DNA from: an uncultured Alphaproteobacteria bacterium
GTDB taxonomy: Bacteria; Pseudomonadota; Alphaproteobacteria; RF32; CAG-239
Reading direction: 5' to 3'
NCBI GenBank assembly: GCA_944390905.1
Contig: CALXRR010000001.1
Span: forward strand, 1 to 62,280
DNA length: 62,280 nt
Shown here: one piece after another, positions 18,224 through 50,778 of the stretch
Numbering within the stretch: the stretch's first letter is position 1
Layout of the letters: every line of letters starts with the position of its first letter
The notes under the pieces: model-generated
The model's database searches: none
Seen by the model: only the letters and a program-made list of their open reading frames with translations
Told to the model about the DNA's origin: nothing
Made by a program: the position numbers and the translations under genes

Positions 18224-18309
18224 AAGATGATAGGCAGGCGGCAATATCTAAGCAACGCGATTTTCTGGGCACGAAACAAACCACAGCTAACCTAGGGCTC
18301 CACGAGCAT

Positions 18310-18380
18310 CGTGGAGCGACTACTTGAAACATGGGATAAGTAACAGCTAAGTTAAGAAGTGAAGCTGGCACAGCTTCTTG
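18310..18380. repeat. Composite repeat: A-tail + H hairpin (second tandem-like copy)
   Basis: Identical 39-mer plus the identical 18-mer gaagctggcacagcttct (18361-18378), preceded by the hairpin ctccacga-gca-tcgtggag (18298-18316). Confidence 0.85.
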
Positions 18381-18446
18381 CGCAGGAGAGGAGGGTAATT
18401 TTGGGAGGTGGGGTTGCGGCAAGAAAAATTGTGTCGTTTAGCCTAA

Positions 18447-19514: not shown

Positions 19515-19518
19515 GGGG

Positions 19519-21390: not shown

Positions 21391-21737
21391 AAAGCGTTAG
21401 GAATATGGCGCAAGCGGAACGGAAACGCGAACAAAACCGCATCAAAGCGGATGTCGTAGTGTTGATAGATTTGATGTTTGGCTAAAAAATTGGCGGCAGC
21501 AGTGCGAATCCGTTTTTGCTGAGCGGGGCTGATGGCATAAGCGGCAGAGGTGATATCTTTACGTTGTTTGACCTCAACAAAGGCCAGAGTATTGCCCCTG
21601 ACGGCGATAAAATCTATCTCTCCGGCGGTGGTGCCGCGGCCGGTGATGTAATTGTGAGCTAGAATCCTCCAGCCATGCAGTCTGAAATACCAGCGCGCGG
21701 CTAATTCAGCCAGATGTCCGCTAAGATTGTGCTGCAT
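21387..21737 (-). CDS. yraN: YraN-family (UPF0102) endonuclease-like protein
   Basis: GEIDFIA...VEVK motif, about 116 aa. Adjacent to rsmI, as in many proteobacteria. Confidence 0.85.
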   Translation of the reverse strand: MQHNLSGHLAELAARWYFRLHGWRILAHNYITGRGTTAGEIDFIAVRGNTLAFVEVKQRKDITSAAYAISPAQQKRIRTAAANFLAKHQIYQHYDIRFDAVLFAFPFRLRHIPNAF

Positions 21738-26076: not shown

Positions 26077-26389
26077 TATTCAAGGAATTATGAAACAAGC
26101 TCAAGCCATGCAGAAAAAAATGGAAGATATGCAAAATCAGCTTGCTCAGCAAGAAGTTGAAGGCTCCAGCGGCGGTGGTATGGTCAAAGTGACCCTTAAC
26201 GGTAAATTTGAAATGAAAAAGCTGGAAATTGATAAGTCTTTAGTGGTGGCTGATGAAGCTGACATCTTAGAAGACTTAATCGTGGCCGCACATAATGATG
26301 CCAAAAATAAAGTTGAAGCAATGATGAGTGACGGTATGAAAAATGTGACCGGCGGTATGAATATCCCCGGATTGAAACTTCCTTTCTAG
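26069..26389 (+). CDS. ybaB: Nucleoid-associated protein YbaB/EbfC
   Basis: MKQAQAMQKKM...GGG.V.V..NG motif. The start ATG overlaps the dnaX stop (ATGCTTAA). Confidence 0.9.
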   Translation: MLNIQGIMKQAQAMQKKMEDMQNQLAQQEVEGSSGGGMVKVTLNGKFEMKKLEIDKSLVVADEADILEDLIVAAHNDAKNKVEAMMSDGMKNVTGGMNIPGLKLPF

Positions 26390-26403
26390 AGGGCTGAAAA
26401 AAA

Positions 26404-26997
26404 GTGGCCGGAAAAGATATTGAAAAACTGGTAAAACTAGTGGCTAAACTCCCAGCGCTCGGAACGCGATCTTCTCGGAGAATCGTGTTGCAGCTACTGA
26501 AAAAAAGAGAAACGCTGTTTTTGCCTTTGATTGAGGCGATGCGCGAAGTGGCAGAAAATGTTAAAACTTGCGAAATCTGCGGCAATTTTGACACCGAATC
26601 ACCCTGCCCGATTTGTGCCTCAGAAACCCGCGATCCATCAACCATTTGCGTGGTGCAAGATGTGGCTGATTTGTGGGCAATGGAGCGCGTGGCAATGTTC
26701 AAAGGAAAATATCATGTCTTGGGTGGTATTTTGTCTGCTTTGGATGGCGTGTCTCCGGAAGACTTAAATATCGAAAAGCTGTTTACACGTATTGAGCGCG
26801 ACGGTATCAAAGAGGTGATTCTGGCGCTGCCGGCGACTATTGACGGACAAATTACTGCTAACTATTTGATTCAAAAGCTCAAAAATTTTAATATTAAAGT
26901 ATCTACTTTGGCGCAGGGGATTCCTGTCGGAGCTGAACTGGATTATATGGACGAAGGAACAATCCAACTCGCGCTTAATTCTCGAAAGGTGTTGTAA
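26404..26997 (+). CDS. recR: Recombination protein RecR
   Basis: LPALGTRSSRR helix-hairpin-helix, C4 zinc finger (CEICGN...CPIC), Toprim domain. Confidence 0.95.
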   Translation: MAGKDIEKLVKLVAKLPALGTRSSRRIVLQLLKKRETLFLPLIEAMREVAENVKTCEICGNFDTESPCPICASETRDPSTICVVQDVADLWAMERVAMFKGKYHVLGGILSALDGVSPEDLNIEKLFTRIERDGIKEVILALPATIDGQITANYLIQKLKNFNIKVSTLAQGIPVGAELDYMDEGTIQLALNSRKVL

Positions 26998-27770
26998 TGA
27001 AAAGTTATGATATCATATTGCCATTGGGGACTTATTGTGCGGCTTCTTACCATTTAAGGCACAATAATTTGCAAGTAGAGTCTTATCCTTTGGATTGGGT
27101 TATAATCGGAAATGTTAAAATCGGAGCTGAAATTATAGCTAACGATTTTAAAGACTTTTTTGTTAAAGAGCGGCTGGTGCGTAAAGATGGTGAAAGCGGT
27201 AATCACATTCCTTATGTGCAGAAGCCTGAAAACTATTCGTTCTTTCATTGCATAGATAAAGATTTGCCTTTTGATGAGGCCTGCGCTAAGGCTAAAGCGA
27301 TGTTTGACCGTAGAATTAAACGGCTGTATGAAAATGTCGGAAAAGCTAAAAATGTGCTGTTTTTATCTGCTCATAATCAACCGTTTAAAGAGCAAGATGC
27401 TATTGATGCTCTGGATATATTGGAAAAGAAATTCCCCGGAAAAAATATCGATCTAATCGTTGTTGATTGCAAAGATAATTATAAAGGTGTTGAAACTGTA
27501 CGTATTAATAATCATATTGATTTGATAAAAATGGAATTCCATACCGGAAAAGATATTTATTCTGATAAACAAGAGGAATTTACTCAAATCTTAAGTGATA
27601 GAAGATTGGGATCAGCTTGGCAAAGAATGGGGCGCAAGTGGAATAATGCTACATTCAAAATCAAACGATTTGTTGTAAACACATTATGCTGTCTTATCCC
27701 AAATAAAAAATGGCGCAAGTCTATTCGTCGTAAGTTTGATGTTTCGACGCAGATGTTTGAACGCAAATAG
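26997..27770 (+). CDS. DUF1796-like protein (putative papain-like cysteine peptidase family), copy 1, with basic CC-IP-K-R tail
   Basis: The N-terminus LPLGTYCAASYHLR...SYPLDWV matches my memory of the DUF1796 signature (.LG..C......L.....YPFDW). The ATG overlaps the recR stop (TAATG). Confidence 0.6.
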   Translation: MKSYDIILPLGTYCAASYHLRHNNLQVESYPLDWVIIGNVKIGAEIIANDFKDFFVKERLVRKDGESGNHIPYVQKPENYSFFHCIDKDLPFDEACAKAKAMFDRRIKRLYENVGKAKNVLFLSAHNQPFKEQDAIDALDILEKKFPGKNIDLIVVDCKDNYKGVETVRINNHIDLIKMEFHTGKDIYSDKQEEFTQILSDRRLGSAWQRMGRKWNNATFKIKRFVVNTLCCLIPNKKWRKSIRRKFDVSTQMFERK

Positions 27771-27778
27771 AGGTAAAA

Positions 27779-28555
27779 ATGAAAAAATATGACTTGTTTA
27801 TACCTTTAGGGTGTTTTTGCCTGCCATCGCATTCTTTACGAATGAGCAAACTGCAGTTTGTGTCTTATCCATTTGATTGGGTCGGATGTGATGATGTGAC
27901 CAAGTTTATTGATTATATGGATAATCATTTTCAAGGATTCTTCCAAAAAGAGAATCTTGAATTGGTCGGGGATGTTATCGGCAACCATATAAGCTATAAA
28001 GATACCAAAAACGGCTTGTTGTTTCCGCATTGTATGGATAAGGATTTGCCTTTTGATGAGGCTTATGACAAAGCCAGAGCTACTTTTGACCGAAGAATTG
28101 AGCGTTTGTACCAAAATATTGCTCAGGCGAAGAAAATTTTGTTTTTCAACGTATGCTACAAAACATATAAACAGCATGATTTGACTGACTTGCTGGATAG
28201 GCTGCGGAAGATGTTTCCAGACAAAGATATCAGCTTGTTAAGAGTGAATTTGTCGCCTGATTTTGGTGATAAGGTAGAGTATAACGAAGTTAGTCCGGAT
28301 ATTTTGGTGTATAATGTAAATTATGATATGGATAAAAATATTTATACCGACCGAGATACCGAGATGGCGCAGATTATGGCTGACTTTAGGATGCGCCCAA
28401 GTAAAAAGGCTGTTGAATATAAGTTAAATGAGGTTGGATTCGCCATTAAGCGTTTTTTGGTAAATTGCTTGTGCTGTTTGGTGCCGATAAAGAGAATCCG
28501 CCATAAAATAAGGAAGAAATTTAATATTTCAACCAAGTTCTTTGACAAAAACTAA
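27779..28555 (+). CDS. DUF1796-like protein, copy 2 (tandem paralog)
   Basis: Collinear with copy 1 (IPLGCFCLPSHSLR...SYPFDWV, CMDKDLPFDEAY.KA.A.FDRRI.RLY). AGAGG lies before the ATG, 8 nt after the copy 1 stop. Confidence 0.6.
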   Translation: MKKYDLFIPLGCFCLPSHSLRMSKLQFVSYPFDWVGCDDVTKFIDYMDNHFQGFFQKENLELVGDVIGNHISYKDTKNGLLFPHCMDKDLPFDEAYDKARATFDRRIERLYQNIAQAKKILFFNVCYKTYKQHDLTDLLDRLRKMFPDKDISLLRVNLSPDFGDKVEYNEVSPDILVYNVNYDMDKNIYTDRDTEMAQIMADFRMRPSKKAVEYKLNEVGFAIKRFLVNCLCCLVPIKRIRHKIRKKFNISTKFFDKN

Positions 28556-28789
28556 ATATTATATACAAAAGTGTAGACAATTTTTTGAAAATTCCTCTTT
28601 ACTTTATCTTAAATTTGTGGTATTAGTATAACTATACTATGGAGTTATCCATAGTTGTACCTGAGAAGGTACGGGGCTGTCGTAAGCCTCTCATATTGAG
28701 TCCGGTGTTGGATATAACATCGTCAAATTGTCTATACAAATTTTGTAGAGGCATGATTATATCCTCCTTTGATTGTGTGACGCGTCCAC

Positions 28790-28900
28790 GGTCGGGGAGC
28801 CGCAAGTATATGTTCAGAAACAGTGTCTGGCAATTGGGGACATAGGTTTTAAAAATTTGCGGAATCATCTGACTCAATATGATTTACGAACTCTCCGACC
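28790..28900 (+). promoter_or_regulatory. Structured leader: hand-folded three-way junction (P1 28790-99/28891-900; P2 28800-05/28857-62; P3 28863-68/28879-84)
   Basis: All pairings were read directly. P1 is 10 bp with one G-U. P2 and P3 abut each other and P1 without linker nucleotides. No known riboswitch consensus recognised. Confidence 0.35.
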
Positions 28901-28922
28901 ACCTTCTTACGGTGGTTTTTTT
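28898..28922 (+). terminator. Intrinsic terminator 28 nt upstream of the 28950 start codon (attenuator, or 3' end of an upstream sRNA)
   Basis: accacc-ttcttac-ggtggt followed by TTTTTT A TTTT. The 5' arm shares 3 nt with the 3' strand of P1. Confidence 0.6.
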
Positions 28923-28949
28923 ATTTTAGATAAATTTAGGAGATGTGTG

Positions 28950-31064
28950 ATGAGTACACAAGAAGAAAAAGAAATTATTAATAAATGGAAAGAAGAAATA
29001 GCCTATTATGAAGAGCGTAATAATCTTTCTGAGCGATGGGGACTGCTTTCAGATATGGTTCTTGATGCAGAAGATTATCCTGAAATTGCCAGAGAGTTGT
29101 CAACAATGTATTTAAACGCGATTGACAAGCTTGATGCCAAAGAGCGCAATCATATGTTTAAAGAAAATTTTTATAAAACAAGATCATTAGGCAGATTAGA
29201 TTATAGAATCTTTGATGATGTGTTGAAATTTGCTGATGAAAGAAAGATTCCGTTGCATATTAATCTTCAGGATCCTGTTCGATATGACTTCATACGAGAT
29301 AGCCTTTTTCAGGCGATGGAGAGAGGTATAGTATCACCAAAACTTTTGATGAAGAATGTATTCTATGATAATTTAGATGTAATGGCTTTTTGTGTAGCTA
29401 AAGACCCTTCTTTGGTAGAAGACTTTTTGAAAGCTGATAAGGCCGTTAAAGAAGATAAAGACCAATATAGAAGATATACATACGATTCTGAAGCTTTGTA
29501 TCAATTATCAACACAATTGGATAAGCTACCGGAAAAAATGACTCCGTGGTTGGTTGATGAAATTAGAAAATTTAATAGTGGGGATCTTGATGAATACATA
29601 CCTAAAACATTTTTTAATATTGTTCGTAACGATGTTAAATATATGACTGAATATCAAAAAGGTGGTTATAAGCTCTTAAACAATAAAGATGCAGAGTTTG
29701 TGGCTAAAATTTATGAAGATTTGCAAAACAGAGTTCCGGATACTTTGACTGAAAAAGATGTCAAGAAAAACAGACCGATAAGCTCTTTGACTAAAGAGGA
29801 ACAAGAATTATCTAAAGCCTGTAAAAAACTGTTACAAAGTTATGAAGGCAAAAAAGCTCTGAAAGTCAAATTGGCTAAACAATATCCAATGAGTGCTGAG
29901 GCTATTCGTGTGGGCAAAGATGATTATATCAGTATGTGCATCAATAATCTGGAAAATCCGGAAAAAGAAAATATCCGTTCAATTTTGAATCGATTGGAAG
30001 CAATAGGAGCCAAAACTTATGAGGACTTTGCCGATGCGGTTGATTTCGTACATAGAAGAGATATGTGCCGAAAGGTTTGTCGTGATTTTAAAAAGGCTCA
30101 ATATGAAAAGCATCAACAAAACCTTGGTGATGATAATTTTGTCTTTTTCCTTGATGATGATCAGTTGTCTTATGGTATGGCAGAAGCCGGTATTAAAGAT
30201 AAAAAAACGGCAGAAAAAGTCGTGGATATGTTTGTTAATTTAAACGACAGACCGGAAACTTATGGTTCTTCTTTAAATCGTTTTTATCCAAAAGATTTGA
30301 AAGATGCGGTTGACGTGGAAGAGTGGATGTATCCGATAATCAAGCATGCTGTATACAGCGAAGTTGTTAATCCTAGCCGCTTGGGCGGAGGCCAAGAGTT
30401 GTTTGCCGCTTGCAAGGCCTGGAAAATCAATCCCAGAATGCCTAAGGCTATTGCCGAACAAGTTGGTGAAATGTCTTTGGCTAAGCGTATGGTTGCCGGT
30501 GCCATTGTTGATGATATGGGAAGAGAGCAAGTTAGACTTCGGTACATAGATGTACCTCGTCTTCAACCTGATTATTGGCTGAGCGAAAATCCTTTATACT
30601 TTCCTAGAATGAACCACAAAAAAGAGCTGATTCCGGAGTTCTGGAAAGAAATGTCTAAGGCTCAGGAGATGTCTTTCGGTGAGGCGATGAAGACTTATAT
30701 CCCCGATACGCCGATTAACCGCAAACGTTTTGTAGCGGCGATGTTGGAAGAAATGGGCGTCGAAAACACCGAGGCTAAGTATCAGCAGACATACAAAAAC
30801 TTGGAAGAAAACGGTAAGTTTGAGGAATTTTTGGCTTCTGACTCAAAAGAACAGAGACGGGAAAGAGTAGAAAGAATCAAACAAAACAAAGCTAAAGTTC
30901 AAGAAAACTCAACCAAGAAGAAATCTATCCGAGAGGCTATTCGCGAACGCTTGGCTAAGAAAAACATTATTCCGGAAACAGGTGCTTTTGGCGAAGGCCA
31001 TAAGATTACCACCAACAAGGATATGTCTCAATTTAAGGCTTTTGTGGATGAAAAATCTCGCTAA
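28950..31064 (+). CDS. Orphan 704-aa hydrophilic protein, no recognisable domain (effector-like)
   Basis: ATG 28950 has AGGAG 7 nt upstream. The ORF-track start at 28773 would read through the terminator. The protein is Lys/Glu-rich with no signal peptide or TM segment. The DNA is visibly more AT-rich than its neighbours. Confidence 0.75.
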   Translation: MSTQEEKEIINKWKEEIAYYEERNNLSERWGLLSDMVLDAEDYPEIARELSTMYLNAIDKLDAKERNHMFKENFYKTRSLGRLDYRIFDDVLKFADERKIPLHINLQDPVRYDFIRDSLFQAMERGIVSPKLLMKNVFYDNLDVMAFCVAKDPSLVEDFLKADKAVKEDKDQYRRYTYDSEALYQLSTQLDKLPEKMTPWLVDEIRKFNSGDLDEYIPKTFFNIVRNDVKYMTEYQKGGYKLLNNKDAEFVAKIYEDLQNRVPDTLTEKDVKKNRPISSLTKEEQELSKACKKLLQSYEGKKALKVKLAKQYPMSAEAIRVGKDDYISMCINNLENPEKENIRSILNRLEAIGAKTYEDFADAVDFVHRRDMCRKVCRDFKKAQYEKHQQNLGDDNFVFFLDDDQLSYGMAEAGIKDKKTAEKVVDMFVNLNDRPETYGSSLNRFYPKDLKDAVDVEEWMYPIIKHAVYSEVVNPSRLGGGQELFAACKAWKINPRMPKAIAEQVGEMSLAKRMVAGAIVDDMGREQVRLRYIDVPRLQPDYWLSENPLYFPRMNHKKELIPEFWKEMSKAQEMSFGEAMKTYIPDTPINRKRFVAAMLEEMGVENTEAKYQQTYKNLEENGKFEEFLASDSKEQRRERVERIKQNKAKVQENSTKKKSIREAIRERLAKKNIIPETGAFGEGHKITTNKDMSQFKAFVDEKSR

Positions 31065-31075
31065 GCTTTAAGCCA

Positions 31076-31113
31076 AAAACAAAAAAACCGGAGCTAACAA
31101 CTCCGGTTTTTTT
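31076..31113. terminator. Bidirectional rho-independent terminator between the orphan gene and cvpA
   Basis: A-run, then ccggag-ctaacaa-ctccgg, then T-run. Confidence 0.85.
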
Positions 31114-39896: not shown

Positions 39897-40916
39897 TTAG
39901 TCTATTATCTTCATGGTGAATTTTTCAGAATCACCATTTGCGGTTTTTAAGGGTTCTACTTCTGCGGAAGAAGTAAATCCGGCGAATGAGTTATTTTTAC
40001 GTTTTTGTTCCAAAATGTCAATAATCATATCAAGTTCAGCAACAGAACCGTATTGCAAAACAACTTTGCCGCCACCCTGTTTGTTGGGTGAAATGCTGAT
40101 TCTGAGACCTAAAGATTTTTTTAAGTCTTTTTCAATATCAGCAATGTCGGAATCTTTTTCAAGCTTGGCTGGTTTGCTCTGAGTGCCGTTTTTGAGCTTG
40201 TTGACAAGGTCTTCAACCTGACGGACGTTTAAGTCTTTTTTGATAATCAGTTGAGCAAGTTCTTCAGCGTTTTCTAAACCTACAAGATTGCGGGCATGGC
40301 CGGCTGACAATTTGCCCTCTTTTACCAGATTTTGCACAGATTCCGGCAGGCTTAACAAACGCAAAGTATTGGCTATGTGGCTGCGTGATTTGCCGATGAT
40401 TTGTGATAAGGCTTCTTGAGTATGAGAAAACTCATCAATCAAGCGCTGCAAGCCTTCGGCCTCTTCAATGGCGGAAAGGTTCTCGCGCAAGAGGTTTTCA
40501 ACCAAAGCAACCTCTAGGACTTCCTTGTCATCCATATCTTTAATAATGACCGGAACCTCTGACAAGCCGGCAAGCTTGGAAGCACGCAAACGACGTTCTC
40601 CGGCTATCAGCTCATAACCTGAAGATACCTTACGTACCAACAAAGGCTGCAAGACGCCCTTCTCTTGAATAGAAGCAGAGAGAGCTTTTAAGGCTTCTTC
40701 ATCAAACTCGGTACGCGGCTGATAGGGGCTGGGTGCAATCTGGTTGATGTCTACTTTAAGTGTTGAAGCAGCTGGTGTTGTTGTGCTTTCTGCCTGTGGG
40801 GCAGGGGTATCATTTAAGGCGGCGTTCAAATCCAAATCATCATCACCGAGCAAAGCGCTAAGACCGCGCCCTAAGCTCTTATGTTTGCCGTGATTGTGAT
40901 TATCGTTTTCTGACAT
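39897..40916 (-). CDS. parB: Chromosome partitioning protein ParB
   Basis: GLSALLG, QPRTEFDEEAL..L..SI...G.LQPL.VR, GERR box, HTH region. Confidence 0.95.
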   Translation of the reverse strand: MSENDNHNHGKHKSLGRGLSALLGDDDLDLNAALNDTPAPQAESTTTPAASTLKVDINQIAPSPYQPRTEFDEEALKALSASIQEKGVLQPLLVRKVSSGYELIAGERRLRASKLAGLSEVPVIIKDMDDKEVLEVALVENLLRENLSAIEEAEGLQRLIDEFSHTQEALSQIIGKSRSHIANTLRLLSLPESVQNLVKEGKLSAGHARNLVGLENAEELAQLIIKKDLNVRQVEDLVNKLKNGTQSKPAKLEKDSDIADIEKDLKKSLGLRISISPNKQGGGKVVLQYGSVAELDMIIDILEQKRKNNSFAGFTSSAEVEPLKTANGDSEKFTMKIID

Positions 40917-40941
40917 TAGTTTTTCCTTATTACAAACGTGG

Positions 40942-41721
40942 TTAGCAAGCTAGTAATTCTTTTTCTCTTTTTAAGACCTCTCCGGTGAGGCTGATATAAG
41001 CCTGTGAACCGGGGCATTTGAAGTCATAAATCAATACCGGTTTGCCGTGAGAAGGAGCCTCAGAAATACGGACGTTGCGCGGGATTACGGTTTGATAAAC
41101 CTTTTTGCCGAAAAAGCTGCGCACATCGTCTTCAACCATTTGGCTTAAGTTGTTGCGCTTATCATACATGGTTAAAACCACTCCCTGCAAATCAAGCGTC
41201 GGGTTAAACTTCTTTTTGATGATATTAATATTGCGGATTAAGTCGGTGACACCTTCAAGCGCCAAAAATTCACACTGCAGCGGAACAATAACCGAGTTGG
41301 CCGCAACCAAGGCATTGATAGTAACAAGGCTTAAAGACGGCGGGCAATCAATCAAAATATAATCGTAATTAACCGCATAGTTAGTAATGGCCTTTTTGAG
41401 GGCGAATTCTCGCTCCGGCATATCAACCAATTCAACCTCAGCCCCGGCAAGGTCAGCTGATGCCGGAATAATCGAGAAATTAGGAATCTCGGTCCAGACA
41501 ATAGCCTCGGTCAATTTGCAAGCCCCAACCAAAACTTCATAAGAAGAATACATACGCCCTTTCTTTTCAATCCCCATTGAGGTAGTGGCATTGCCTTGAG
41601 GATCTAAATCAATAACCAAAACTTTTTTTCCGGTGGCAGCCATAGCCGTGGCAACATTGACCGTGGTCGTGGTTTTGCCGACTCCACCTTTACGATTAGC
41701 TATCGCAATTATTCTGGGCAT
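40942..41721 (-). CDS. parA: Chromosome partitioning ATPase ParA/Soj
   Basis: Deviant Walker A NRKGGVGKTTT, DLDPQGNAT. Confidence 0.95.
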   Translation of the reverse strand: MPRIIAIANRKGGVGKTTTTVNVATAMAATGKKVLVIDLDPQGNATTSMGIEKKGRMYSSYEVLVGACKLTEAIVWTEIPNFSIIPASADLAGAEVELVDMPEREFALKKAITNYAVNYDYILIDCPPSLSLVTINALVAANSVIVPLQCEFLALEGVTDLIRNINIIKKKFNPTLDLQGVVLTMYDKRNNLSQMVEDDVRSFFGKKVYQTVIPRNVRISEAPSHGKPVLIYDFKCPGSQAYISLTGEVLKREKELLAC

Positions 41722-42347
41722 TAGTTTCTCCTTTTTAATGATAAATCAGTTATAACTAAAACAACTCCTTCGGCGCTCGATTCACTCGGATAAACATCAT
41801 AACTAAAATTCCAGTGTTGTTGAGCGGCGGAAAGTTCTTCTTGATATTTTTTGCCTTTGGGGAAAATACACTTGGTTCCTTTATGGCAAAATTTGAAAGC
41901 GTATTTAAGCAAGTCATCTAACGAGCTCATGGCACGAGAGGTGATGACATCGGCTTTTTGAGCGGGCAGGTTTTCAATGCGGTCATTTAAGACTTCAACA
42001 TTATTAAGCCCGAGTTCAGAAGCAACGGCGTTTAAATACAGTGTTTTCTTTTTGATACTTTCAACTAATTTGATTTTTAAATACGGTGTTCTGGTTTGCA
42101 AAACAACCGCCAAAACCAACCCCGGGAAACCTGCTCCGGAGCCGAAATCATACATTAATTTTGCAGTATCGGGAATAAATTTAAGTAATTGCAATGAATC
42201 TAAAAAATGACGATTCCAAGCATCAGGCAATGATGCATTGCTTACTAAATTAAACTTATTTTGCCATTCGTTAAGAAGGCGCTCATAAGTCTTTAGCTTT
42301 GACAATGTTTCACGTGAAACAGAATATTTTTCAATTAAATTTTCCAT
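41721..42347 (-). CDS. rsmG: 16S rRNA (guanine527-N7)-methyltransferase RsmG (GidB)
   Basis: VSRETL, DFGSGAGFPGL SAM motif. Conserved gidA-gidB-parAB order. Confidence 0.93.
   Translation of the reverse strand: MENLIEKYSVSRETLSKLKTYERLLNEWQNKFNLVSNASLPDAWNRHFLDSLQLLKFIPDTAKLMYDFGSGAGFPGLVLAVVLQTRTPYLKIKLVESIKKKTLYLNAVASELGLNNVEVLNDRIENLPAQKADVITSRAMSSLDDLLKYAFKFCHKGTKCIFPKGKKYQEELSAAQQHWNFSYDVYPSESSAEGVVLVITDLSLKRRN
42031..42044 (+). repeat. 14-mer TTTAAATACAGTGT, copy 2 (inside rsmG; read as K-T-L-Y-L-N)
   Basis: Exact match. Confidence 0.9.
42306..42321. promoter_or_regulatory. parS centromere site (TGTTTCACGTGAAACA), inside the rsmG 5' end
   Basis: Perfect 16-bp palindrome identical to the canonical parS consensus. 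It encodes VSRET. Confidence 0.9.
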
Positions 42348-42472
42348 AGAAATATTTATATAAATTTTCTAGGGATTTTAAAACTATTTTTCACGAGTTA
42401 TGAACATCAAAATACATGCAAATAATATATTTTAAATTCAACAACTTAAACATTGTTTCTTGAATCTTTTGA

Positions 42473-43309
42473 TTAAATTTTTATTTCAGGTTTATATCGG
42501 TTTTTATAATTGATAGATTGGAGCAAGTTTTCAGCTAGGTCAAAACAATAAGCAATATGTTCAACCGTATGAGCATCATCACTAACAATCAGCGGAACTT
42601 GACGATTGTTTAACTCTTCAATCATCCAAAGGTGAGGGTGCTGCTCGCCAACTTTGCGCCAGCCGCTGGTGTTTAGCTCATAAGGCTGATTATATTCGGC
42701 AAGGGTATCGATTACTTTGCGCTTCCAGACATCCCATTTGGGCTCAACTCCAAGGTTAAACAGTTTGCAGACATCTAAATGAGCTATAAAGTCAAAATAT
42801 CCGCTCTGGATAGATTCGATAATGTTTTGCCAATAGTTAACCATAAGTTCTTCAACCATAGAGGATGAACAATTTGATTCTTTCAGGTGATACAAGTTCA
42901 AAACCAAACTTTCATCTGCAGTGCGGATGCAGTGAGTCGAACCAATCAAATAATCAGGCTTGGCAGCCGAAATGATTTCTTCAAAGTCATCACGCCAACG
43001 ACGGGAAGGAAAAAAATCTACCTCAAAACCGGCATAGACTTTTATCGGCGCGGTTTGGGCTTTTTCTTTAATATCATTAACAACGGCGGTCATTATCTCT
43101 TTGTTTTTTTGCTTGTCAGCATGGAACATTTTATCATTTTTTTGAGCCTCAGAGCTGGTATGCATATTGGGGTGGTATATCAGGTGGTTGGAGATACCTA
43201 ATTCTGTATATCCGGCCTTATAGGCAGCATCAATCATCTCGGATACAGAGTTGTGACCGTCAAACAAACCAAAGCTGTTGGTATGTGTATGGTAAGAAAA
43301 AGTTTGCAT
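42473..43309 (-). CDS. PHP-domain phosphoesterase (histidinol-phosphatase HisJ-like family)
   Basis: YHTHT N-terminus with later conserved H/D residues (GSTHC, IAHLD, SDDAH). Confidence 0.7.
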   Translation of the reverse strand: MQTFSYHTHTNSFGLFDGHNSVSEMIDAAYKAGYTELGISNHLIYHPNMHTSSEAQKNDKMFHADKQKNKEIMTAVVNDIKEKAQTAPIKVYAGFEVDFFPSRRWRDDFEEIISAAKPDYLIGSTHCIRTADESLVLNLYHLKESNCSSSMVEELMVNYWQNIIESIQSGYFDFIAHLDVCKLFNLGVEPKWDVWKRKVIDTLAEYNQPYELNTSGWRKVGEQHPHLWMIEELNNRQVPLIVSDDAHTVEHIAYCFDLAENLLQSINYKNRYKPEIKI

Positions 43310-43337
43310 TAAATCCTCCTGATTACAGGAGGACAGA

Positions 43338-43961
43338 TTACTTAGAAATGCTTAAAATTTCATAAATATCGCGTTGGCATTTTTCATCAAAATATGATTT
43401 TAGGTCATATAATTGTTGGAGGATATGAGCTTGCGCCTCGGGGGTGGTGTTATAGCGCTTGGCAATATCGGCCAGACGATCTTCAAAACTACAAATACGC
43501 CCTTTATTATTAAGCATATCAATCATAGCGATTAGTTTATCATAATCGTTAAAGGTAAAGTCTTTCATTATCTCGCGGCTTTCAGCGAGGTAATCCTTAA
43601 AATGGATATAATCTTCATCTTTGAAGTCAGGAGTATAAAAACTATGAGTCATACAAACCTGAGCAATTTCATCATACCCCAAAGACTTCATATAACGATA
43701 GCCGACAATGCCATGGAAGATGTTTTCGTTCCATTCATCAATCATGCGGCCGCAATCGTGGAGCAGCCCCATGGCATAAGCCTTGCGCCACTCCAGAGTT
43801 TTGGTCTTTTTTGCCAGAGCCTCGGCAATCTTGGCAACCAGACGGCAATGAGCACGAAATGAGGGTTCCATATTGCCAACAAAAGGGTGCTGGGTGGCAT
43901 TACGGACTTCAATGACTTTTTCAAAAATCTGTTCAGCTTCGGCAATAGTCGGAAAACTCAT
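43338..43961 (-). CDS. HD-domain metal-dependent phosphohydrolase
   Basis: H...LLHDCGR motif. About 207 aa. Confidence 0.7.
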   Translation of the reverse strand: MSFPTIAEAEQIFEKVIEVRNATQHPFVGNMEPSFRAHCRLVAKIAEALAKKTKTLEWRKAYAMGLLHDCGRMIDEWNENIFHGIVGYRYMKSLGYDEIAQVCMTHSFYTPDFKDEDYIHFKDYLAESREIMKDFTFNDYDKLIAMIDMLNNKGRICSFEDRLADIAKRYNTTPEAQAHILQQLYDLKSYFDEKCQRDIYEILSISK

Positions 43962-43990
43962 AATAGAACCTCTTTAAATATAATAAGCAG

Positions 43991-44004
43991 TTTAAATACA
44001 GTGT
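43991..44004 (+). repeat. 14-mer TTTAAATACAGTGT, copy 3 (immediately 3' of the mnmG stop)
   Basis: Exact match. It abuts the stop-codon complement at 44005-44007. Confidence 0.9.
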
Positions 44005-45861
44005 TTAAGCTTTTTTGATAAAGCCTAAAATGGCAGCAATAGCGGCCGGAGTAACCCCTGGGATACGAGAGGCCTCACCAATGGTTGACGGTTTGACTTT
44101 GGTTAGTTTTTGAACCATCTCTCGCGACAAGCCACCGATGTGACTATAATCTATATCATCACGGATTTTTAATTTCTCATCTTTTTTGAAGACTTCAATA
44201 TCTGCCTCTTGGCGTTTGATATAACCGGAATAACGAGCCTCAATTTCAAGCTGCTCAAAAATATCATCAGGCATAGATGCCAGCTCCGGCCAAAAATGGT
44301 TGATTGTTTCACGTGAAACAGAATCATATGACATTAAATTATATGCCGTGCGTTTGGTGCCGTTCTGCTTTACTTTTAAACCTATGTTTTCAATATCAGC
44401 GTGCTTGGTGCTGAGCTCTTGAGTAAGAGTGCGGTACTTGTCCAGAGCAGCTTTTTTAGCTTTAAATACAGTGTATCGTTCATCACCAACAACGCCAATA
44501 TCGTGCCCTTTTTCAGTCAGGCGCAAGTCGGCATTATCAGCTCGCAATAATAATCTGTATTCAGAGCGAGAAGTAAACATACGGTATGGCTCATCGACCC
44601 CTTTGGTGATTAAGTCATCAATCATTACACCGATATAGGCCTCACTACGGTCAATGACAAACTCTTGACCGTCGCCTTTGGCTTTAAGCGCGGCATTGAT
44701 GCCGGCAACAACACCTTGGGCAGCGGCTTCTTCATAACCGGTAGTGCCGTTGATTTGTCCGGCCAAGAAAAGTCCGGGGGCTTTTTTGAGCTCCAAGCAA
44801 TGGTTGAGCTCTTGCGGGTCAACATAGTCATATTCTATGGCATAAGCATAGCGCAGAATTTTGACGTTCTCCAGACCTTCCATGGTATGAATAAAAGCTT
44901 CTTGAACATCTGCCGGCAGAGATGTCGATATACCATTAGGGTAGACAACATCGGTATTATAACCTTCAGGCTCAAGAAAAATTTGGTGACTGTCACGATC
45001 AGGAAACTTAACAAGTTTATCTTCAATACTAGGGCAATAGCGGGGGCCGATGCCTTTAATTAAACCAGAGAAGAGGGCGCATTTTTCAAAGTTATCACGA
45101 ATAATTTGATGGGTGCGCAAATTGGTACGAGTTACACCGCACTGAATTTGCGGCTGAGGCAGGCTTTCAGTCAGAAAAGAAAAAGGTATCGGATTAGCAT
45201 CACCGTCTTGTTTGGGCAAGATATCCCAATTGATGGTTTTGCTGCTTAAACGTGCCGGCGTGCCGGTTTTTAAGCGGCCGACTTTTAAGCCTAAATCGTT
45301 TAAATACGGTGTTATACCTGTACAACTAACATCATTAACACGGCCGCCGATAGTGGCTTGATGTCCGGTAAACATTACACCATTCAAAAATGTACCGGAG
45401 GTTAAAACAACTGCCTTAGATTTGATGGTTGAGCCATCAGCCAAAATGACTCCACAGACCTTATTATGTTCAATCAGCAGTCCTTCAACCGCAGCCTCAA
45501 TCAAAGTCAAATTGGGTTGAGCTTGCAGGGCTTCAAGCATATAATGGCGATAAAGTTCTCGGTCAGCTTGAGCACGAGGGCCTCGAACAGCCGGTCCTTT
45601 AGAGGCATTAAGCATACGAAACTGTATACCGGCTTTATCAATAACACGTCCCATTAAGCCGTCAAGGGCATCAATTTCACGCACAAGGTGGCCTTTGCCC
45701 AAGCCGCCAATAGCCGGATTGCATGACATTTCACCAATGGTGGATAGTTTATGGGTAACCAGAGCGGTTTTGGCTCCCATACGGGCTGACGCAGCGCAAG
45801 CCTCACAGCCGGCATGACCGCCGCCAACAACGATTACATCAAAATCTTGATTGTTATTCAT
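44005..45861 (-). CDS. mnmG: tRNA uridine-5-carboxymethylaminomethyl synthesis enzyme MnmG (GidA)
   Basis: [17 protein letters not shown] motif. Full-length GidA pattern. Confidence 0.97.
44305..44320. promoter_or_regulatory. parS centromere site (TGTTTCACGTGAAACA), inside mnmG
   Basis: Second perfect copy. It encodes VSRET within [10 protein letters not shown]. Confidence 0.9.
44461..44474 (+). repeat. 14-mer TTTAAATACAGTGT, copy 4 (inside mnmG; read as Y-T-V-F-K)
   Basis: Exact match. Confidence 0.9.
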
Positions 45862-45974
45862 TTCTCATAAAGCCTTTATTGATTTTGTATCAGGTTTTAC
45901 AACAGCTTGCGCCTGATTGCAAGTCTTATTTTGGCAATAGGAGGTTGATTTTAAACGATTTTTATTTAAACAAG

Positions 45975-45988
45975 TTTAAATACATCGT
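45975..45988 (+). repeat. Degenerate copy of the 14-mer (TTTAAATACATCGT, 12/14), mnmE-mnmG spacer
   Basis: Same strand, 29 nt upstream of copy 5. Confidence 0.5.
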
Positions 45989-46016
45989 TCAAATAGAGCA
46001 TAAAAACAAAACAAAG

Positions 46017-46030
46017 TTTAAATACAGTGT
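46017..46030 (+). repeat. 14-mer TTTAAATACAGTGT, copy 5 (abutting/overlapping the mnmE stop)
   Basis: Exact match. The last T is the first nt of the stop-codon complement (46030-46032). Confidence 0.9.
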
Positions 46031-47373
46031 TATTTGCCTATACAGAAACTACCGAAGATTTTATCTAAGATTTCATCAACCTCTATGCGGCCGGTGATTT
46101 TACCGATTTCTCTGGCAGCTAAGCGGATATCCTCAGCGGAAAGCTCTATCTCTTTATCAAGGTTAAACAGTTTTAAGGAGGTGAGGGCAGAGGACAAAGC
46201 TTCACGATAACGAGCACGGGTTATCAGAATATTAGAGTTAGAAGTAAACTTGTCACTGATAATATTGCCAATAGTGCTAAGCAAGCTATCAATACCTTGT
46301 TGGTGTTTGGCAGAAATAACCAAATTGCCAGCCGAAAGTAAAGATGAACATTGCTCAGCGGTAAGGTTGTCACTCTTATTAGCAACGTACAACATTTTAT
46401 TATGGAATGTTTTAGCAATATTATCAAACACTTGAACGGTGTCTTGTGAGGCATCATACAAACAAATCAGTAAATCAGCGTCTTGGATTTTTTGATAAGC
46501 TATCTCAACCCCTTGGCGCTCAATGGCTTCCTCGGTTTCACGAATGCCGGCGGTGTCGGTAATAATCACCGGATAACCATTCAAATCAAGGTGGATATCA
46601 ATAGCGTCTCGGGTAGTGCCGGCAATATCTGAGACAATTACGACATCACGCTTGGCTATGGCATTAAGCAAGCTGGACTTGCCGGCATTGGGGCGGCCGA
46701 CAATAACAACCCGAAAACCTTCACGCAATCTTTCTCCGATATTATCTGAGGCAAGGTGGTGTTCTATGGATTGGCGAAGTTTAAATACAGTGTTATTGAT
46801 ATCAGCAACAACGGTTTCAGGTATCTCTTCATCCGGAAAATCAATATAAGCCTCAAGATGAGCCATAATGTTAACCAGCTGCTCGCGCCATTCTTCATAC
46901 AGATTTTTTAAGCTGCCTTCCATTTGGCGCAGGGCATATTTTTGCTGGGCTTGGGTTTCAGCATCAATCAAATCAGCCAGACCCTCAGCCTCGGTTAAGT
47001 CCATCTTATGATTATAAAAGGCTCGTTTGGAAAATTCTCCGGCCTCGGCCATGCGAAAATCAGGAATCCGGCTCAGATTGTCCAGAACACTCGAAATCAC
47101 GGCGCGGGAGCCATGGGTATGCAGCTCGATGATATCCTCTCCGGTGAACGAATTTGGCCCCTTAAAATATAACAATAGGCATTTATCTAAGGTATCAACT
47201 CCGGAAAGTGATTTTAAATCAAGGAAATAGGCATAGCGGGCCTTGAGCTTGGAAGTGTCAAGCTTGGTCATTTGACGCACGACATCCAACGCCTTGCTGC
47301 CGGAAATGCGAATCACCGCTACTCCCGATTTGCCCAAAACGGTTGAAAGTGCATAAATGGTCTTGTTATCCAT
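46030..47373 (-). CDS. mnmE: tRNA modification GTPase MnmE (TrmE)
   Basis: GRPNAGKSSLLN G1 motif, DTAGIR G3 motif, C-terminal FCIGK. Confidence 0.97.
   Translation of the reverse strand: MDNKTIYALSTVLGKSGVAVIRISGSKALDVVRQMTKLDTSKLKARYAYFLDLKSLSGVDTLDKCLLLYFKGPNSFTGEDIIELHTHGSRAVISSVLDNLSRIPDFRMAEAGEFSKRAFYNHKMDLTEAEGLADLIDAETQAQQKYALRQMEGSLKNLYEEWREQLVNIMAHLEAYIDFPDEEIPETVVADINNTVFKLRQSIEHHLASDNIGERLREGFRVVIVGRPNAGKSSLLNAIAKRDVVIVSDIAGTTRDAIDIHLDLNGYPVIITDTAGIRETEEAIERQGVEIAYQKIQDADLLICLYDASQDTVQVFDNIAKTFHNKMLYVANKSDNLTAEQCSSLLSAGNLVISAKHQQGIDSLLSTIGNIISDKFTSNSNILITRARYREALSSALTSLKLFNLDKEIELSAEDIRLAAREIGKITGRIEVDEILDKIFGSFCIGK
46780..46793 (+). repeat. 14-mer TTTAAATACAGTGT, copy 6 (inside mnmE; read as N-T-V-F-K)
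   Basis: Exact match. Confidence 0.9.
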
Positions 47374-48998: not shown

Positions 48999-50252
48999 TT
49001 AACTATTCATATTATTGAAAAAGTCGTGGTTGTCTTTGGAGACCTTTAACTTATCAAGCAAAAATTCCATACCGTCGGTCATGCCCATCTGCATCAGGAC
49101 GCGACGCAAAACCCACATCTTGGATAAGGTTTGACGGTCAACCAAAAGCTCTTCTTTACGTGTACCGGAACGGGTAATATCAATGGTAGGAAATAGTCTT
49201 TTATCAACCAATTTTCTATCCAAAATGATTTCAGAGTTGCCGGTACCTTTGAATTCTTCAAAAATAACTTCATCCATGCGTGAACCGGTATCAATCAAAG
49301 CAGTGGCAATAATCGTCAAAGAGCCGCCTTCTTCAACATTGCGGGCTGCACCCAACAAACGTTTGGGGCGTTGGAGAGCATTGGCGTCAACACCTCCGGT
49401 CAAAACCTTGCCTGAAGAGGGGATGACGGCATTGTAAGCACGGCCTAAACGAGTGATGGAATCGAGCAAAATAACAACGTCTTTTTTGGTTTCAACCAAG
49501 CGCTTGGCCTTTTCAACTACCATTTCGGCTACTTGAACATGGCGAGCGGCCGGCTCATCAAAGGTAGATGAGATAACCTCGCCTTTAACCGAACGAGTCA
49601 TGTCGGTTACTTCTTCAGGACGCTCATCAATCAGCAGAACCATGAGGTAAACCTCGGGGTGATTAGCTGCAATCGCATGAGCAATATTTTGCAGCATAAC
49701 TGTTTTACCGGTGCGCGGCGGCGCTACTATCAGACCTCGTTGGCCTTTACCTTGCGGGGCTATTAAATCTATGACACGAGTAGTATAATCTTTTTCACCG
49801 CAGATAATATCAAAGTTAAGCTTTTGAGTTGGATACAACGGTGTAAGGTTGTCAAAATTAACTCTGAGTTTGGATTTTTCAGGGTCTTCAAAGTTAATAC
49901 GATTGATTTTGGTTAGTGCAAAATAACGCTCGTTATCTTTGGGAGCGCGGATTTCGCCTTCGACAGTGTCTCCAGTGCGAAGACCATATTTTTTGACTTG
50001 TTGCGGAGAAACATATATATCATCCGGACTGGCCAAATAATTGGACTCCGTTGAACGCAAAAAACCAAAACCGTCGGGTAAAACTTCAATAGTGCCGTCA
50101 CCTAATATTACTTCATCATCTGAGGCGACTTTTTTTAATATGGCAAAAATCAGGTCCTGAACACGCATGGAAGATGCGTCTTCAATGCCGAGTTCTTCAG
50201 CTTGGGTAAGCAAGGCCTTGGGAGATTTTTGCTTGAGCTCTTGTAAATGCAT
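48999..50252 (-). CDS. rho: Transcription termination factor Rho
   Basis: N-terminal Rho_N, cold-shock-like RNA-binding domain, PPRTGKT Walker A, full length. Confidence 0.97.
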
Positions 50253-50388: not shown

Positions 50389-50397
50389 TTATGCACA
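50389..50397. promoter_or_regulatory. DnaA-box-like 9-mer TTATGCACA (1 mismatch)
   Basis: Compared with TTATCCACA. Confidence 0.4.
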
Positions 50398-50462
50398 GAC
50401 CGACCTGCCCTATCATTTAAATTTTAAAATTTTAGTAGTGATTTGTATATGCCTGTGAGTTA

Positions 50463-50471
50463 TGTGGATAA
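50463..50471. promoter_or_regulatory. Perfect DnaA box (TGTGGATAA = complement of TTATCCACA)
   Basis: Exact 9/9 match. Confidence 0.6.
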
Positions 50472-50487
50472 GTTTTAAAAGGCTCTC

Positions 50488-50502
50488 TTAATACGCTGTT
50501 AA
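50488..50502. promoter_or_regulatory. CtrA-type box TTAA-N7-TTAA
   Basis: ttaa tacgctg ttaa read directly, 17 nt from the perfect DnaA box. Confidence 0.4.
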
Positions 50503-50714
50503 TATTTTTTTAACGAATCGATGTCTAAATTTAAAGAAATTAACAAAATGTAAATTTTTCTGTCGAGTCAGGCCTTGTAAAGGACTATTTTTAGCGACTC
50601 TAAAAAAAATTTTTTAAACGCTGAAACCGAATCTGTATAAGGCTTGTGGGTAAGTCTGTAGAATAAATTTTACATTACGTGGATTAATTTGTATAAATGT
50701 CTAAAAATGATGAG

Positions 50715-50723
50715 TTATACACA
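50715..50723. promoter_or_regulatory. DnaA-box-like 9-mer TTATACACA (1 mismatch)
   Basis: Compared with TTATCCACA. Confidence 0.35.
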
Positions 50724-50778
50724 GAATGAAGAGAATTTGTGCATAAGTATCGTAACTCTTTGTTTTGAGGATGGTTTT

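Follow-up and report, generated by a model that had tools for sequence, protein, structure and literature searches.

The question raised by this locus is why a rare 15-base word, (A)ACnnnGTATTTAAA, should recur in nucleotide-identical form within and between the housekeeping genes of related uncultured gut bacteria. In the window, by which we mean the whole 62,280-nucleotide stretch that was analysed, the first-pass annotation had reported six exact 14-mers, all on the plus strand, and one 12/14 copy. A scan of the window found all of these again: exact TTTAAATACAGTGT, which is the motif on the minus strand, lies at 5327, 42031, 43991, 44461, 46017 and 46780, and the 12/14 copy at 45975. Near copies were also detected at 42076 and 45299 (one mismatch each) and at 5361 (two mismatches), plus a weaker match at 29103, on the opposite strand. 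With up to 2 mismatches allowed, there were 11 matches in the window against 0.75 expected, and 0 of 100 shuffles reached 11. The 14-mer is real as a motif, but it is one variant of the degenerate ACnnnGTATTTAAA. When 62 instances were aligned, GTATTTAAA was invariant, AC lay five bases upstream, and the R-S-Y spacer between them was semi-degenerate, giving the consensus (A)AC-R-S-Y-GTATTTAAA; such a bipartite consensus is typical of a protein site. The motif is asymmetric, with an information content of about 26 bits, and we agree that it is neither a terminator nor a palindromic operator. Using a position weight matrix trained solely on relatives, the 10 strong copies in the window, all on the minus strand, scored 21-29 bits, while shuffled windows gave 0-2 matches at 12 bits or more. 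The flanks of the window copies are unrelated and showed no alignment with each other, which rules out a longer repeat built around the 14-mer and, with it, a mobile repeat.

The proposal that the cluster is tied to the parS region was borne out, as two perfect parS sites fall inside it. The genomic setting is as follows:

39897..47373, minus strand, gene block parB-parA-rsmG-PHP(HisJ-type)-HD-mnmG-mnmE, host of cluster 1 (Pfam and NCBIfam)
42306..42321, no strand, perfect parS TGTTTCACGTGAAACA in the rsmG N-terminus, conserved in relatives
44305..44320, no strand, perfect parS TGTTTCACGTGAAACA in the mnmG C-terminus, conserved in relatives
50389..50746, no strand, cluster of DnaA boxes, putative oriC, in the rho-coaE spacer and first coaE bases

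Eight of the 10 strong copies are located in mnmE-mnmG-HD-PHP-rsmG, a 5.6 kb segment that contains both perfect parS sites, and the remaining two form a second cluster where a CcrM-like methylase gene ends. This second cluster, and a site in polA of relatives, had been missed. The gene block of cluster 1 is syntenic in L122-L125, and the motif cluster coincides with 2-3 parS sites and begins about 3 kb from the DnaA boxes. In the window, the eight copies of cluster 1 are 3.6-8.4 kb away from the DnaA-box cluster, which holds the sole perfect TTATCCACA of the window; the rho-coaE spacer has the sole perfect DnaA box in L122, L123 and L125 as well. GC skew in the window was ambiguous and did not confirm the putative oriC, which leaves it uncertain in which direction the cluster is replicated.

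The copies in the window, with scores from the weight matrix of relatives, are:

46780..46793, minus strand, exact motif (ACACTGTATTTAAA on minus) in mnmE, codons ~194-198 (NTVFK), 28.8 bits
46017..46030, minus strand, exact motif overlapping the mnmE stop (TAA-CACTGTATTTAAA), 28.8 bits
45975..45988, minus strand, motif ACGATGTATTTAAA between mnmE and mnmG (spacer), 42 nt away from the 46017 copy, 21.1 bits
45299..45312, minus strand, motif ACACCGTATTTAAA in mnmG at aa 184 (ITPYLN frame), 26.4 bits
44461..44474, minus strand, exact motif in mnmG at aa 463 (RYTVFK), 23.6 bits
43991..44004, minus strand, exact motif directly 3' of the mnmG stop, HD gene start 30 nt downstream, 27.0 bits
42076..42089, minus strand, motif ACACCGTATTTAAA in rsmG at aa 87 (TPYLK), 25.3 bits
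42031..42044, minus strand, exact motif in rsmG at aa 102 (KTLYLN), 45 nt from the 42076 copy, 27.9 bits
29103..29116, plus strand, borderline motif ACAATGTATTTAAA in ORF 28773-31064 (function unassigned), 15.7 bits
5361..5374, minus strand, motif ACGGTGTATTTAAA in the C-terminal ENGVFK tail of the CcrM-like DNA methylase, 24.5 bits
5327..5340, minus strand, exact motif providing the stop of the CcrM-like methylase (KHCI-TAA), 25.7 bits

Since it scores only 15.7 bits, the 29103 copy, which is the sole one in the window oriented against all others, may be a chance match.

The reading frames given by the first-pass annotation (KTLYLN in rsmG, YTVFK in mnmG, NTVFK in mnmE and KHCI-stop in the methylase) were correct, as was its observation of two copies adjoining the stop codons of mnmE and mnmG. 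From this it had placed the constraint on nucleic acid and not on protein, which we can confirm because synonymous sites are frozen: in 13 of the 15 codon columns within the motif all 7 species had the same codon, versus 56 of 631 columns elsewhere (Fisher p = 7e-12). Within a variable stretch of MnmE the motif moves by 21 nt or duplicates, and where it is lost the peptide is retained through different codons. The mnmE copy at 46780 is found at this site in 11 of 12 species; in L019 it has moved by 21 nt, and in L100 and L124 it is doubled. The arrangement at the mnmE stop is also present in L046, L122 and L123. In mnmG, the copy at aa 184 has the same nucleotide string in 10 of 10 species; that at aa 463, which lies 154 nt transcriptionally upstream of the mnmG parS, is conserved in 6 of 8 species, and L215 retains the DVFK peptide with different codons. 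The copy following mnmG has counterparts in L122, at the mnmG stop, and in L123, at HD stops. The core ACNNNGTATTTAAA at rsmG aa 87 occurs in 13 of 13 species (ACACCG in 12, ACGCCG in L123), as does the copy at aa 102. The methylase tail ENG[IV]FK is conserved as protein, its motif form occurring only in relatives at least ~82% identical; L310 and L311 have the stop-plus-motif arrangement at the same place in the methylase.

Conservation in related genomes had been suggested as a check, and the array was found to be common to at least 20 uncultured relatives, Alphaproteobacteria of gut or rumen with GC contents of 27-51%, each with 6-10 copies, all co-oriented. In five genomes, the mnmE-rsmG interval contained 40 copies in 30.5 kb (1.3 per kb) versus 3 in 117 kb of flanks (0.026 per kb), figures that hold for the origin-proximal part of the genome from which the sampled DNA comes. 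Exact 14-mer matches in the genomes of related species were nearly all inside the mnmE-rsmG cluster. Relatives have 1-3 further copies in the polA linker, the 21-kb polA loci carrying exactly one each, and a genome would perhaps hold 10-25 copies in total, mostly within one 6-kb block. The motif was absent from parA and from rho, which is about 90% identical between species. Tandem duplicates occur as 21-nt units in mnmE and, in L157, as a run of three units in the polA linker, which fits selection for extra sites. Unbiased copies on both strands, a longer mobile repeat or absence outside the window had been set beforehand as outcomes that would speak against the motif, and none of these occurred.

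Within each cluster all copies point one way, and convergent operons make no exception. The four copies within 3.3 kb in L311 and L312 share a single strand, two of them being antisense to their host regulator and porin genes, and L310 shows the same pattern; the host gene does not set motif orientation.

Our preferred reading, held tentatively and at rather less than even confidence, is that the motif forms an oriented array of binding sites for a putative sequence-specific protein on centromere- and origin-proximal DNA. We infer both the binding of protein to duplex DNA and a role in organising the centromere/origin region. (A)AC-R-S-Y-GTATTTAAA would be the recognition site of this DNA-binding factor, and selection would retain a dense array, about one site per 0.7 kb and 6-10 copies over 5-7 kb of parS DNA beside the putative origin, plus a few satellites in the polA linker, at the end of the CcrM-like methylase gene (3') and in the convergent operon that directly follows this gene. 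Sites lie where the coding sequence permits: in variable loops, in linkers between domains, at stop codons or within short spacers. Because the site is asymmetric and co-oriented even across convergent genes, the bound complex would interact directionally with DNA-tracking machinery (RNA polymerase, the replisome, or ParB/SMC), and might serve it as a guide or as a polar barrier. Another option is that the sites are turned so that the complex lets the dominant traffic through. Among the explanations offered by the first-pass annotation, a site for an ori-domain organiser survives best; a site for a nuclease, recombinase or methyltransferase, which it also listed, is a less likely candidate. 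As with parS/ParB, matS/MatP, ram/RacA and NBS/Noc, there are between a handful and dozens of high-information sites in one chromosomal region, many of them intragenic and conserved across species, and the array overlaps the parS sites themselves. However, parS, matS, ram and NBS are palindromic, dimer-bound and without orientation, whereas this motif is asymmetric and co-oriented within a cluster. In this it resembles Ter/Tus, RTP-Ter and eukaryotic CTCF-type sites, polar barriers with asymmetric sites of ~15-20 bp at which orientation matters and which are often intragenic and grouped in a common orientation, although Ter sites form two opposed groups around the terminus and the motif lies beside parS and the putative origin.

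Strict shared orientation is more characteristic of elements that are read on one strand, such as ops, Chi and KOPS, and counts against an array of protein sites, as does the fact that every copy is co-directional with a plausible transcript. The main rival, which we regard as possible but doubtful, is an element coupled to transcription, read on the non-template strand or by the elongating polymerase in the manner of ops/RfaH or a NusG pause. Along the mnmE-rsmG operon and a few others it would bring in a factor of elongation or termination, or cause it to pause. All 40 cluster copies, plus those in polA, the methylase and parB, are on the sense strand. Three antisense copies lie downstream of a convergent operon, directly so in L310 and L311, where its stop is 2-22 nt from that of the neighbour, leaving no room for a terminator and making a read-through path likely. 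Several copies directly follow a stop codon at places without a predicted hairpin terminator. GTATTT in the motif resembles the T-rich NusG pause motif. Like ops and other non-template signals of the NusG family, the motif is rare, highly specific and oriented, measures 12-15 nt, is independent of frame and translation and has internal variable positions, and its AC-nnn-GT could fold as a mini-hairpin comparable to the hairpin described for ops (PMC5995543). Against this, ops-type elements occur singly in the 5' leaders of long accessory operons, whereas here 6-10 copies lie mainly in the coding sequence of core housekeeping genes, some of them antisense; L122 has an opposite-strand gene within the supposed operon, and the motif is unrelated in sequence to GGCGGTAGnnTG. 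A target at the RNA level, for a small RNA seed or an RNA-binding protein co-regulating the mnmE, mnmG, rsmG, polA and methylase mRNAs, is unlikely. Coding copies called in the cluster, polA and methylase genes are all sense-strand, synonymous sites are conserved as in small-RNA sites within coding sequence, and the R/Y degeneracy at positions 3 and 5 could be tolerated by G-U wobble, but the other positions lack wobble-type variation, and in three strong copies the motif runs antisense to the host gene. Moreover, known small-RNA targets do not resemble a set of 8-10 sites per operon with tandem triplets, ~300 kb of clade sequence yielded no complementary RNA gene, and an Rfam search was empty.

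The first-pass annotation had proposed a DNA-uptake-like signal; an uptake sequence, maintained by transformation-driven molecular drive and biased to genome-maintenance genes, is very improbable and close to refuted. Like the Neisseria DUS and Pasteurellaceae USS, the motif is an asymmetric, contiguous word tolerated in every frame and conserved as nucleotides in core genes (polA, DNA methylase, parB, mnmG), where different species have it at homologous positions. Uptake sequences number hundreds to thousands of dispersed copies (PMC2817400), whereas outside the 5-7 kb cluster the density is 40-50 times too low, with a single copy per polA locus. Orientation is uniform instead of mixed, equally conserved neighbours such as rho and parA lack the motif, its sequence is dissimilar to known DUS/USS, and a Pfam scan of window ORFs of at least 150 aa (a few listed ORFs left out) revealed no competence gene. 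The suggested KOPS/Chi-like architecture word falls short in the same way; KOPS and Chi share the co-orientation on one strand but are 5-8 nt long and occur every few kb genome-wide. Both were rejected because the copies are too rare and too clustered. A translational recoding signal is the least credible reading, and extremely improbable. The motif includes U-UUA-AAC, and UUUAAAC is a classic -1 slippery heptamer, here in tRNA/rRNA-modification genes and in a slip-competent phase at mnmG aa 184 and in both rsmG copies. The tRNAs that read UUA and AAA are substrates of MnmE and MnmG. Yet the motif is found in each of the three frames, in spacers and behind stop codons, three copies are antisense to their genes, slippage would not require AAC three bases upstream, and the polA frame breaks of L307 and L308 lie away from the motif. 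A site for a recombinase, transposase, homing enzyme or nuclease, att- or target-like and kept in conserved genes, is quite unlikely. The motif is asymmetric, 14-17 bp long, often at the 3' ends of conserved genes, and its inner ACRSYGT is a partial palindrome; mnmE (trmE) is an island target in other bacteria, and accessory genes adjoin copies (a tRNA_bind gene in L122, 1-3 HD paralogues). However, no copy at more than 20 loci was occupied by any element, targets inside essential coding sequence would be dangerous, and active direct-repeat sites would delete essential genes. The only recombinase of the region scores as an ordinary XerD/XerC, and this also separates the motif from Bacillus XDS (SMC unloading by XerD), which lies at the terminus and not at the centromere, but which is likewise asymmetric and half-site-like, bound by a single protein and clustered in one domain. 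The 3' part of the motif, GTATTTAAAC(T), matches what we take to be the XerD arm, TTATGTAAACT, at 9 of 11 positions, a weak likeness for AT-rich sequence.

A motif search of the window recovered all six exact plus-strand copies of TTTAAATACAGTGT listed in the first-pass annotation, which start at 5327, 42031, 43991, 44461, 46017 and 46780, together with its 12/14 copy at 45975. Copies that had been overlooked were found at 42076 and 45299 (one mismatch each), at 5361 (two mismatches) and, on the opposite strand, at 29103 (weight-matrix position 29100), the last being borderline at 15.7 bits. This gave 11 window matches with no more than two mismatches against 0.75 expected, and 0 shuffles reached 11. 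When a weight matrix trained on relatives only was applied, with the window sites left out, ten minus-strand sites scored 21-29 bits (maximum 29.5), and the strong copies all lay on one strand. The 60-nt flanks of the window copies were dissimilar, with no likeness beyond about 3 nt on either side, and a longer mobile repeat with the 14-mer as its core, a possibility that the annotation had raised against its own reading, is thus ruled out. Eight of the strong copies fall among the following genes (Pfam and NCBIfam assignments) and sites:

39897-40916, minus strand, parB
40942-41721, minus strand, parA
41721-42347, minus strand, rsmG
42306-42321, perfect parS in the rsmG N-terminus
42473-43309, minus strand, HisJ-type PHP protein
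43338-43961, minus strand, HDIG protein
44005-45861, minus strand, mnmG
44305-44320, perfect parS in the mnmG C-terminus
46030-47373, minus strand, mnmE
48999-50252, minus strand, rho
50389-50746, five DnaA-box-like sites over the rho-coaE spacer and the start of coaE

In every genome, sampling covered DNA no further than about 60 kb from the putative origin. From the start of mnmE to the end of rsmG, in the window and in four loci fetched from other genomes (L122-L125), 40 copies in a single orientation were counted in 30.5 kb (1.31 per kb), compared with 3 copies in 117 kb (0.026 per kb) outside that interval, which confirmed the proposed clustering at parS. Most copies lie within coding sequence. 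Those of the cluster are directed away from the DnaA-box cluster, and there were no copies in rho, in parA, or in the 3-12 kb examined beyond the DnaA boxes. Within the origin-proximal DNA sampled, copies comprised this cluster, a second cluster about 45 kb away at the methylase gene, and polA beside gyrB, and a genome may have some 10-25 copies in all, one block accounting for a third to a half. The array was found in uncultured gut and rumen Alphaproteobacteria, putatively of the order RF32, with genomes of 27% to 51% GC, so that the conservation in related genomes which had been suggested as a check is present. One fetched locus (L067) has an extra exact copy near the mnmE N-terminus, at about amino acid 39, and a one-mismatch copy in inverted orientation 127 nt from it (5318 and 5445), the only inverted pair seen. 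A contig labelled Bacteroidaceae (L096) has parA and parB 82% and 68% identical to those of the window and carries the rsmG motif pair, and is therefore probably mis-binned. In a distant organism labelled Eubacteriales (L041, MnmE 32% identical), one exact 14-mer in mnmE has the opposite orientation and is probably a chance occurrence.

Judged from its sequence and surroundings, the DnaA-box cluster is probably oriC, in a hemE-less form of the alphaproteobacterial origin neighbourhood. The sole perfect TTATCCACA of the window falls within it, the rho-coaE spacer also carries the only perfect DnaA box in L122, L123 and L125, and the neighbouring coaE, dnaQ, secB, Tim44, mltA and smr are canonical alphaproteobacterial origin surroundings. 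GC skew was estimated after plus-strand genes had been separated from minus-strand genes; the strand-independent skew on the plus strand was positive in all three window parts (about +0.10, +0.05 and +0.23), and there is therefore no switch of sign at the putative oriC. A leading/lagging assignment from skew was dropped, since skew in the relatives is almost wholly a gene-orientation effect and that of the window is anomalous. A third parS, with one mismatch, occurs in the mnmE N-terminus of two relatives (L124 and L125, at 10168). Between mnmG and rsmG there are one to three paralogous HDIG genes and a HisJ-type PHP gene, the number depending on the species (window 42473-43961; L123 13266-15416; L124 13850-16578).

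Seeding on the invariant 9-mer in the window and orthologous loci gathered 62 instances, with the consensus (A/T)-A-A-C-R-S-Y-G-T-A-T-T-T-A-A-A-(C/G)-(T), or AACRSYGTATTTAAA as a degenerate search word. The motif holds about 26 bits over 15-17 positions and consists of a strict 9-mer and a strict AAC with three semi-free positions between them, AC standing five bases upstream of nearly every GTATTTAAA in the loci examined. No dyad spans the whole motif, and partial palindromy is limited to the sub-elements ACRSYGT and TTTAAA. Chance matches dominated a scan of the genome collection with the 14-mer. About 11 alphaproteobacterial matches were among the matches listed; seven of these were the orthologous locus (five the rho-mnmE-mnmG locus of other species, two rsmG and parB) and the remaining four (L009, L061, L068 and L078) were compatible with chance. 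Further orthologous loci were obtained through MnmE homologues and a paired-motif scan of metagenomes, and a pair-pattern scan of viral contigs returned unrelated repeats only.

Selection acts on nucleotides at the motif sites. At five orthologous positions (mnmE amino acid 194; mnmG 184 and 463; rsmG 87 and 102) 14 nt are constant and the adjacent codons vary freely; ACA CCG TAT TTA AAx was present in 10/10 mnmG and 12/13 rsmG sequences (ACG in L123). When only columns with an invariant amino acid were counted, in three genes and seven species, all species used the same codon at 13 of 15 columns inside the motif versus 56 of 631 elsewhere (Fisher's exact p = 7e-12). CCG and TTA codons fixed across genomes of 27-51% GC represent DNA-level selection overriding codon choice, and motif-frozen codons matter for gene-tree and dN/dS analyses of mnmE, mnmG, rsmG and polA in this clade. 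The part of MnmE that contains the motif is poorly conserved; L019 has the motif shifted 21 nt upstream, and L100 and L124 have it twice. A peptide explanation fails because the motif is read in three frames, as TPYLN, as NTVFK or as the source of a TAA stop, and also occurs in spacers. The peptide N-x-V-F-K in particular is ruled out by the TPYLN frame and by stop-codon, spacer and antisense copies, and L215 keeps a DVFK peptide, encoded as GAT GTT TTC AAA, with the motif absent. The earlier view that the constraint is on nucleic acid rather than protein is thus supported by the frozen codons, the three frames, and the spacer and antisense copies. A programmed -1 frameshift site, which requires an in-phase slippery heptamer and a stimulator in a coding sequence, was also rejected, only the frame-A copies being in phase and the rest being in frame B, stop-supplying, non-coding or antisense; frame independence, with non-coding and antisense copies, excludes peptide and recoding readings together.

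Several known classes of repeated word were compared with the motif. DNA uptake sequences (DUS/USS) occur in both orientations at comparable frequency. They are found genome-wide at about 1 per kb, whereas the motif reaches that density only in the cluster, and their orientation is mixed, whereas all 40 cluster copies are on one strand. Uptake sequences number hundreds to thousands of copies per genome (PMC2817400). Uptake also depends on competence machinery with a sequence-specific receptor; no comEC, dprA or pilQ was found among the window ORFs of at least 150 aa that were scanned, all but a few of those listed. KOPS/Chi-type polar words are short (5-8 nt) and frequent genome-wide, in contrast to a motif of this length and information content that is rare outside its clusters. 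Such words also run with replication on both chromosome arms. Rarity in the DNA sampled, extreme clustering and absence from equally conserved neighbours exclude the uptake, KOPS and Chi-like candidates of the first-pass annotation. REP, BIME and MITE elements are mostly intergenic, and their copies either share extended flanks or bear terminal inverted repeats; a mobile short repeat of this kind is ruled out by the dissimilar flanks and by the coding location of most copies. Iterons are evenly spaced tandem direct repeats beside an initiator gene, and were rejected because copy-to-copy spacing ranges from 21 to 1915 bp without phasing and the origin-like region has ordinary DnaA boxes. Compared by eye, the DnaA box, CtrA (TTAA-N7-TTAA), IHF, LexA, PhoB and marbox consensuses did not fit, and a promoter and terminator scan gave no consistent tie to the motif.

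We infer both a factor and a function for the motif. The strict 9-mer and AAC, the roughly 26 bits, the concentration in one block, tandem amplification on a local scale, and a location where coding constraints are loose argue for a site at which a sequence-specific factor would occupy high-affinity copies, with selection favouring many of them in one region. Since that region is where ParB loads, beside the putative origin, the best reading, which we hold tentatively, is a predicted oriented protein-binding array on centromere- and origin-proximal DNA. It may accordingly belong, with the same caution, among domain-specific binding-site arrays. The parS, matS and ram-type arrays confine multiple conserved copies to one chromosomal region, a pattern that the motif may share, as far as the origin-proximal DNA sampled goes, but those sites are palindromic for a dimeric protein and the motif as a whole has no dyad. 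Uniform orientation within a cluster, even across convergent operons, implies that the bound factor would interact directionally with machinery tracking along the DNA. To our knowledge, no oriented accessory sites are known for the ParB-parS centromere, and a literature search by sequence string and topic found no description of the motif or of an oriented accessory array at a bacterial centromere. If protein-bound there, the array would be an unrecognised orientation-dependent part of bacterial chromosome organisation beside ParB-parS; its hosts are a widespread uncultured gut lineage, and the motif is compact enough for direct testing. It is rather doubtful that the motif and a candidate protein act together as a polar boundary or guide, equivalent in bacteria to CTCF or Ter. 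In that role they would set the limits or the direction of the zone in which ParB/SMC are loaded, for instance by letting RNA polymerase and the replisome pass one way while ParB clamps or SMC were confined at the centromere. Such an element would add a new level to the control of chromosome segregation in Alphaproteobacteria, and would be a new kind of system.

Because the orientation of the motif always matches a plausible transcript, sense or read-through, and because the replication direction is insecure, an ops-like element read on the non-template strand is a serious rival, if an unlikely one. The copies in the main cluster, polA and the methylase gene are on the non-template strand; three copies, in the methylase loci L310 and L311/L312, are antisense to their host genes, though in a likely read-through path. 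However, an ops element occurs once per long operon, in its 5' leader, with the consensus GGCGGTAGnnTG, whereas the motif has 6-10 copies, mostly in coding sequence and dissimilar to it. Such an element would call for a specialised NusG paralogue, and none was encoded among the window ORFs scanned. That the motif is a target at the RNA level we consider improbable, and an Rfam 15 covariance-model search found no known RNA family at it; a sub-threshold U6 snRNA match in mnmE (46297-46401, 24 bits where the gathering score is 44, E = 0.015) was judged to be chance. A recombinase or nuclease site is very improbable, and the recombinase encoded in the window looks ordinary. By proximity, ParB is suggested as a binder of the predicted array, and two other candidates are:

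2943-3563, atypical OmpR-family winged-helix regulator, 206 aa
55618-56523, XerD/XerC-like recombinase

The N-terminal half of the OmpR-family regulator has no receiver-domain model match. Its gene adjoins a Porin_4 gene, is kept beside the methylase and polA loci in relatives, and itself holds a motif copy in L311.

In the second cluster, a CcrM-like N6-adenine DNA methylase gene takes its stop codon from the copy at 5327, in line with the K-H-C-I-stop reading of the first-pass annotation, and close relatives have one copy in an ENGVFK tail and one at the stop codon. The methylase loci L311 and L312 have four same-strand copies in 3.3 kb. Two of these are antisense to their host genes, the regulator and porin genes, which are convergent; L310 has one such copy. 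The methylase locus L309, which comes from a more distant relative and shares a 261-kb scaffold with L125, had no copies. L311 and L312 also have a type II-C CRISPR-Cas9 locus beside the porin gene (14616-19428 and 14619-19891), with a cas9 of 1001 aa, cas1, cas2 and 36-nt repeats GTTATAGCTTCCTTTCCAAATCAGATATGCTATAAT at a 66-nt period. The repeat bears no relation to the motif, and a reading as Cas9 seed plus PAM was set aside, since conservation of the motif extends far beyond that of any CRISPR locus.

In polA, the linker joining the 5'-nuclease to the remainder of Pol I has one to three copies (three tandem units in L157), and PolA homologues have xN[TA]VFKxx at about amino acid 300. Two 21-kb polA loci, L307 and L308, contain exactly one GTATTTAAA each, at the linker site. 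In both, polA (10001-12704 and 10001-12749) is split into two overlapping ORFs by a +1 frame break. Since the break follows the motif by 150 nt in L307 and precedes it by 70 nt in L308, programmed frameshifting was rejected, and the breaks are probably assembly indels. Many PolA homologues from the protein search end near the linker. Compared with L307, the window has a synteny break at about 21400-21700, where RsmI and LppC adjoin a poly(A)-polymerase-like gene from which, in L307, they are separated by about 16 kb including polA and gyrB. In the genome of L125 the methylase locus has the opposite orientation to that in the window and neighbours rpsT-dnaA-dnaN-recF. A low-GC island of the window at 26000-31100 (35-39% versus 43%) contains two genes of the DUF1796 papain-like kind; the borderline opposite-strand copy of the motif lies there in a 763-aa ORF without a family match.
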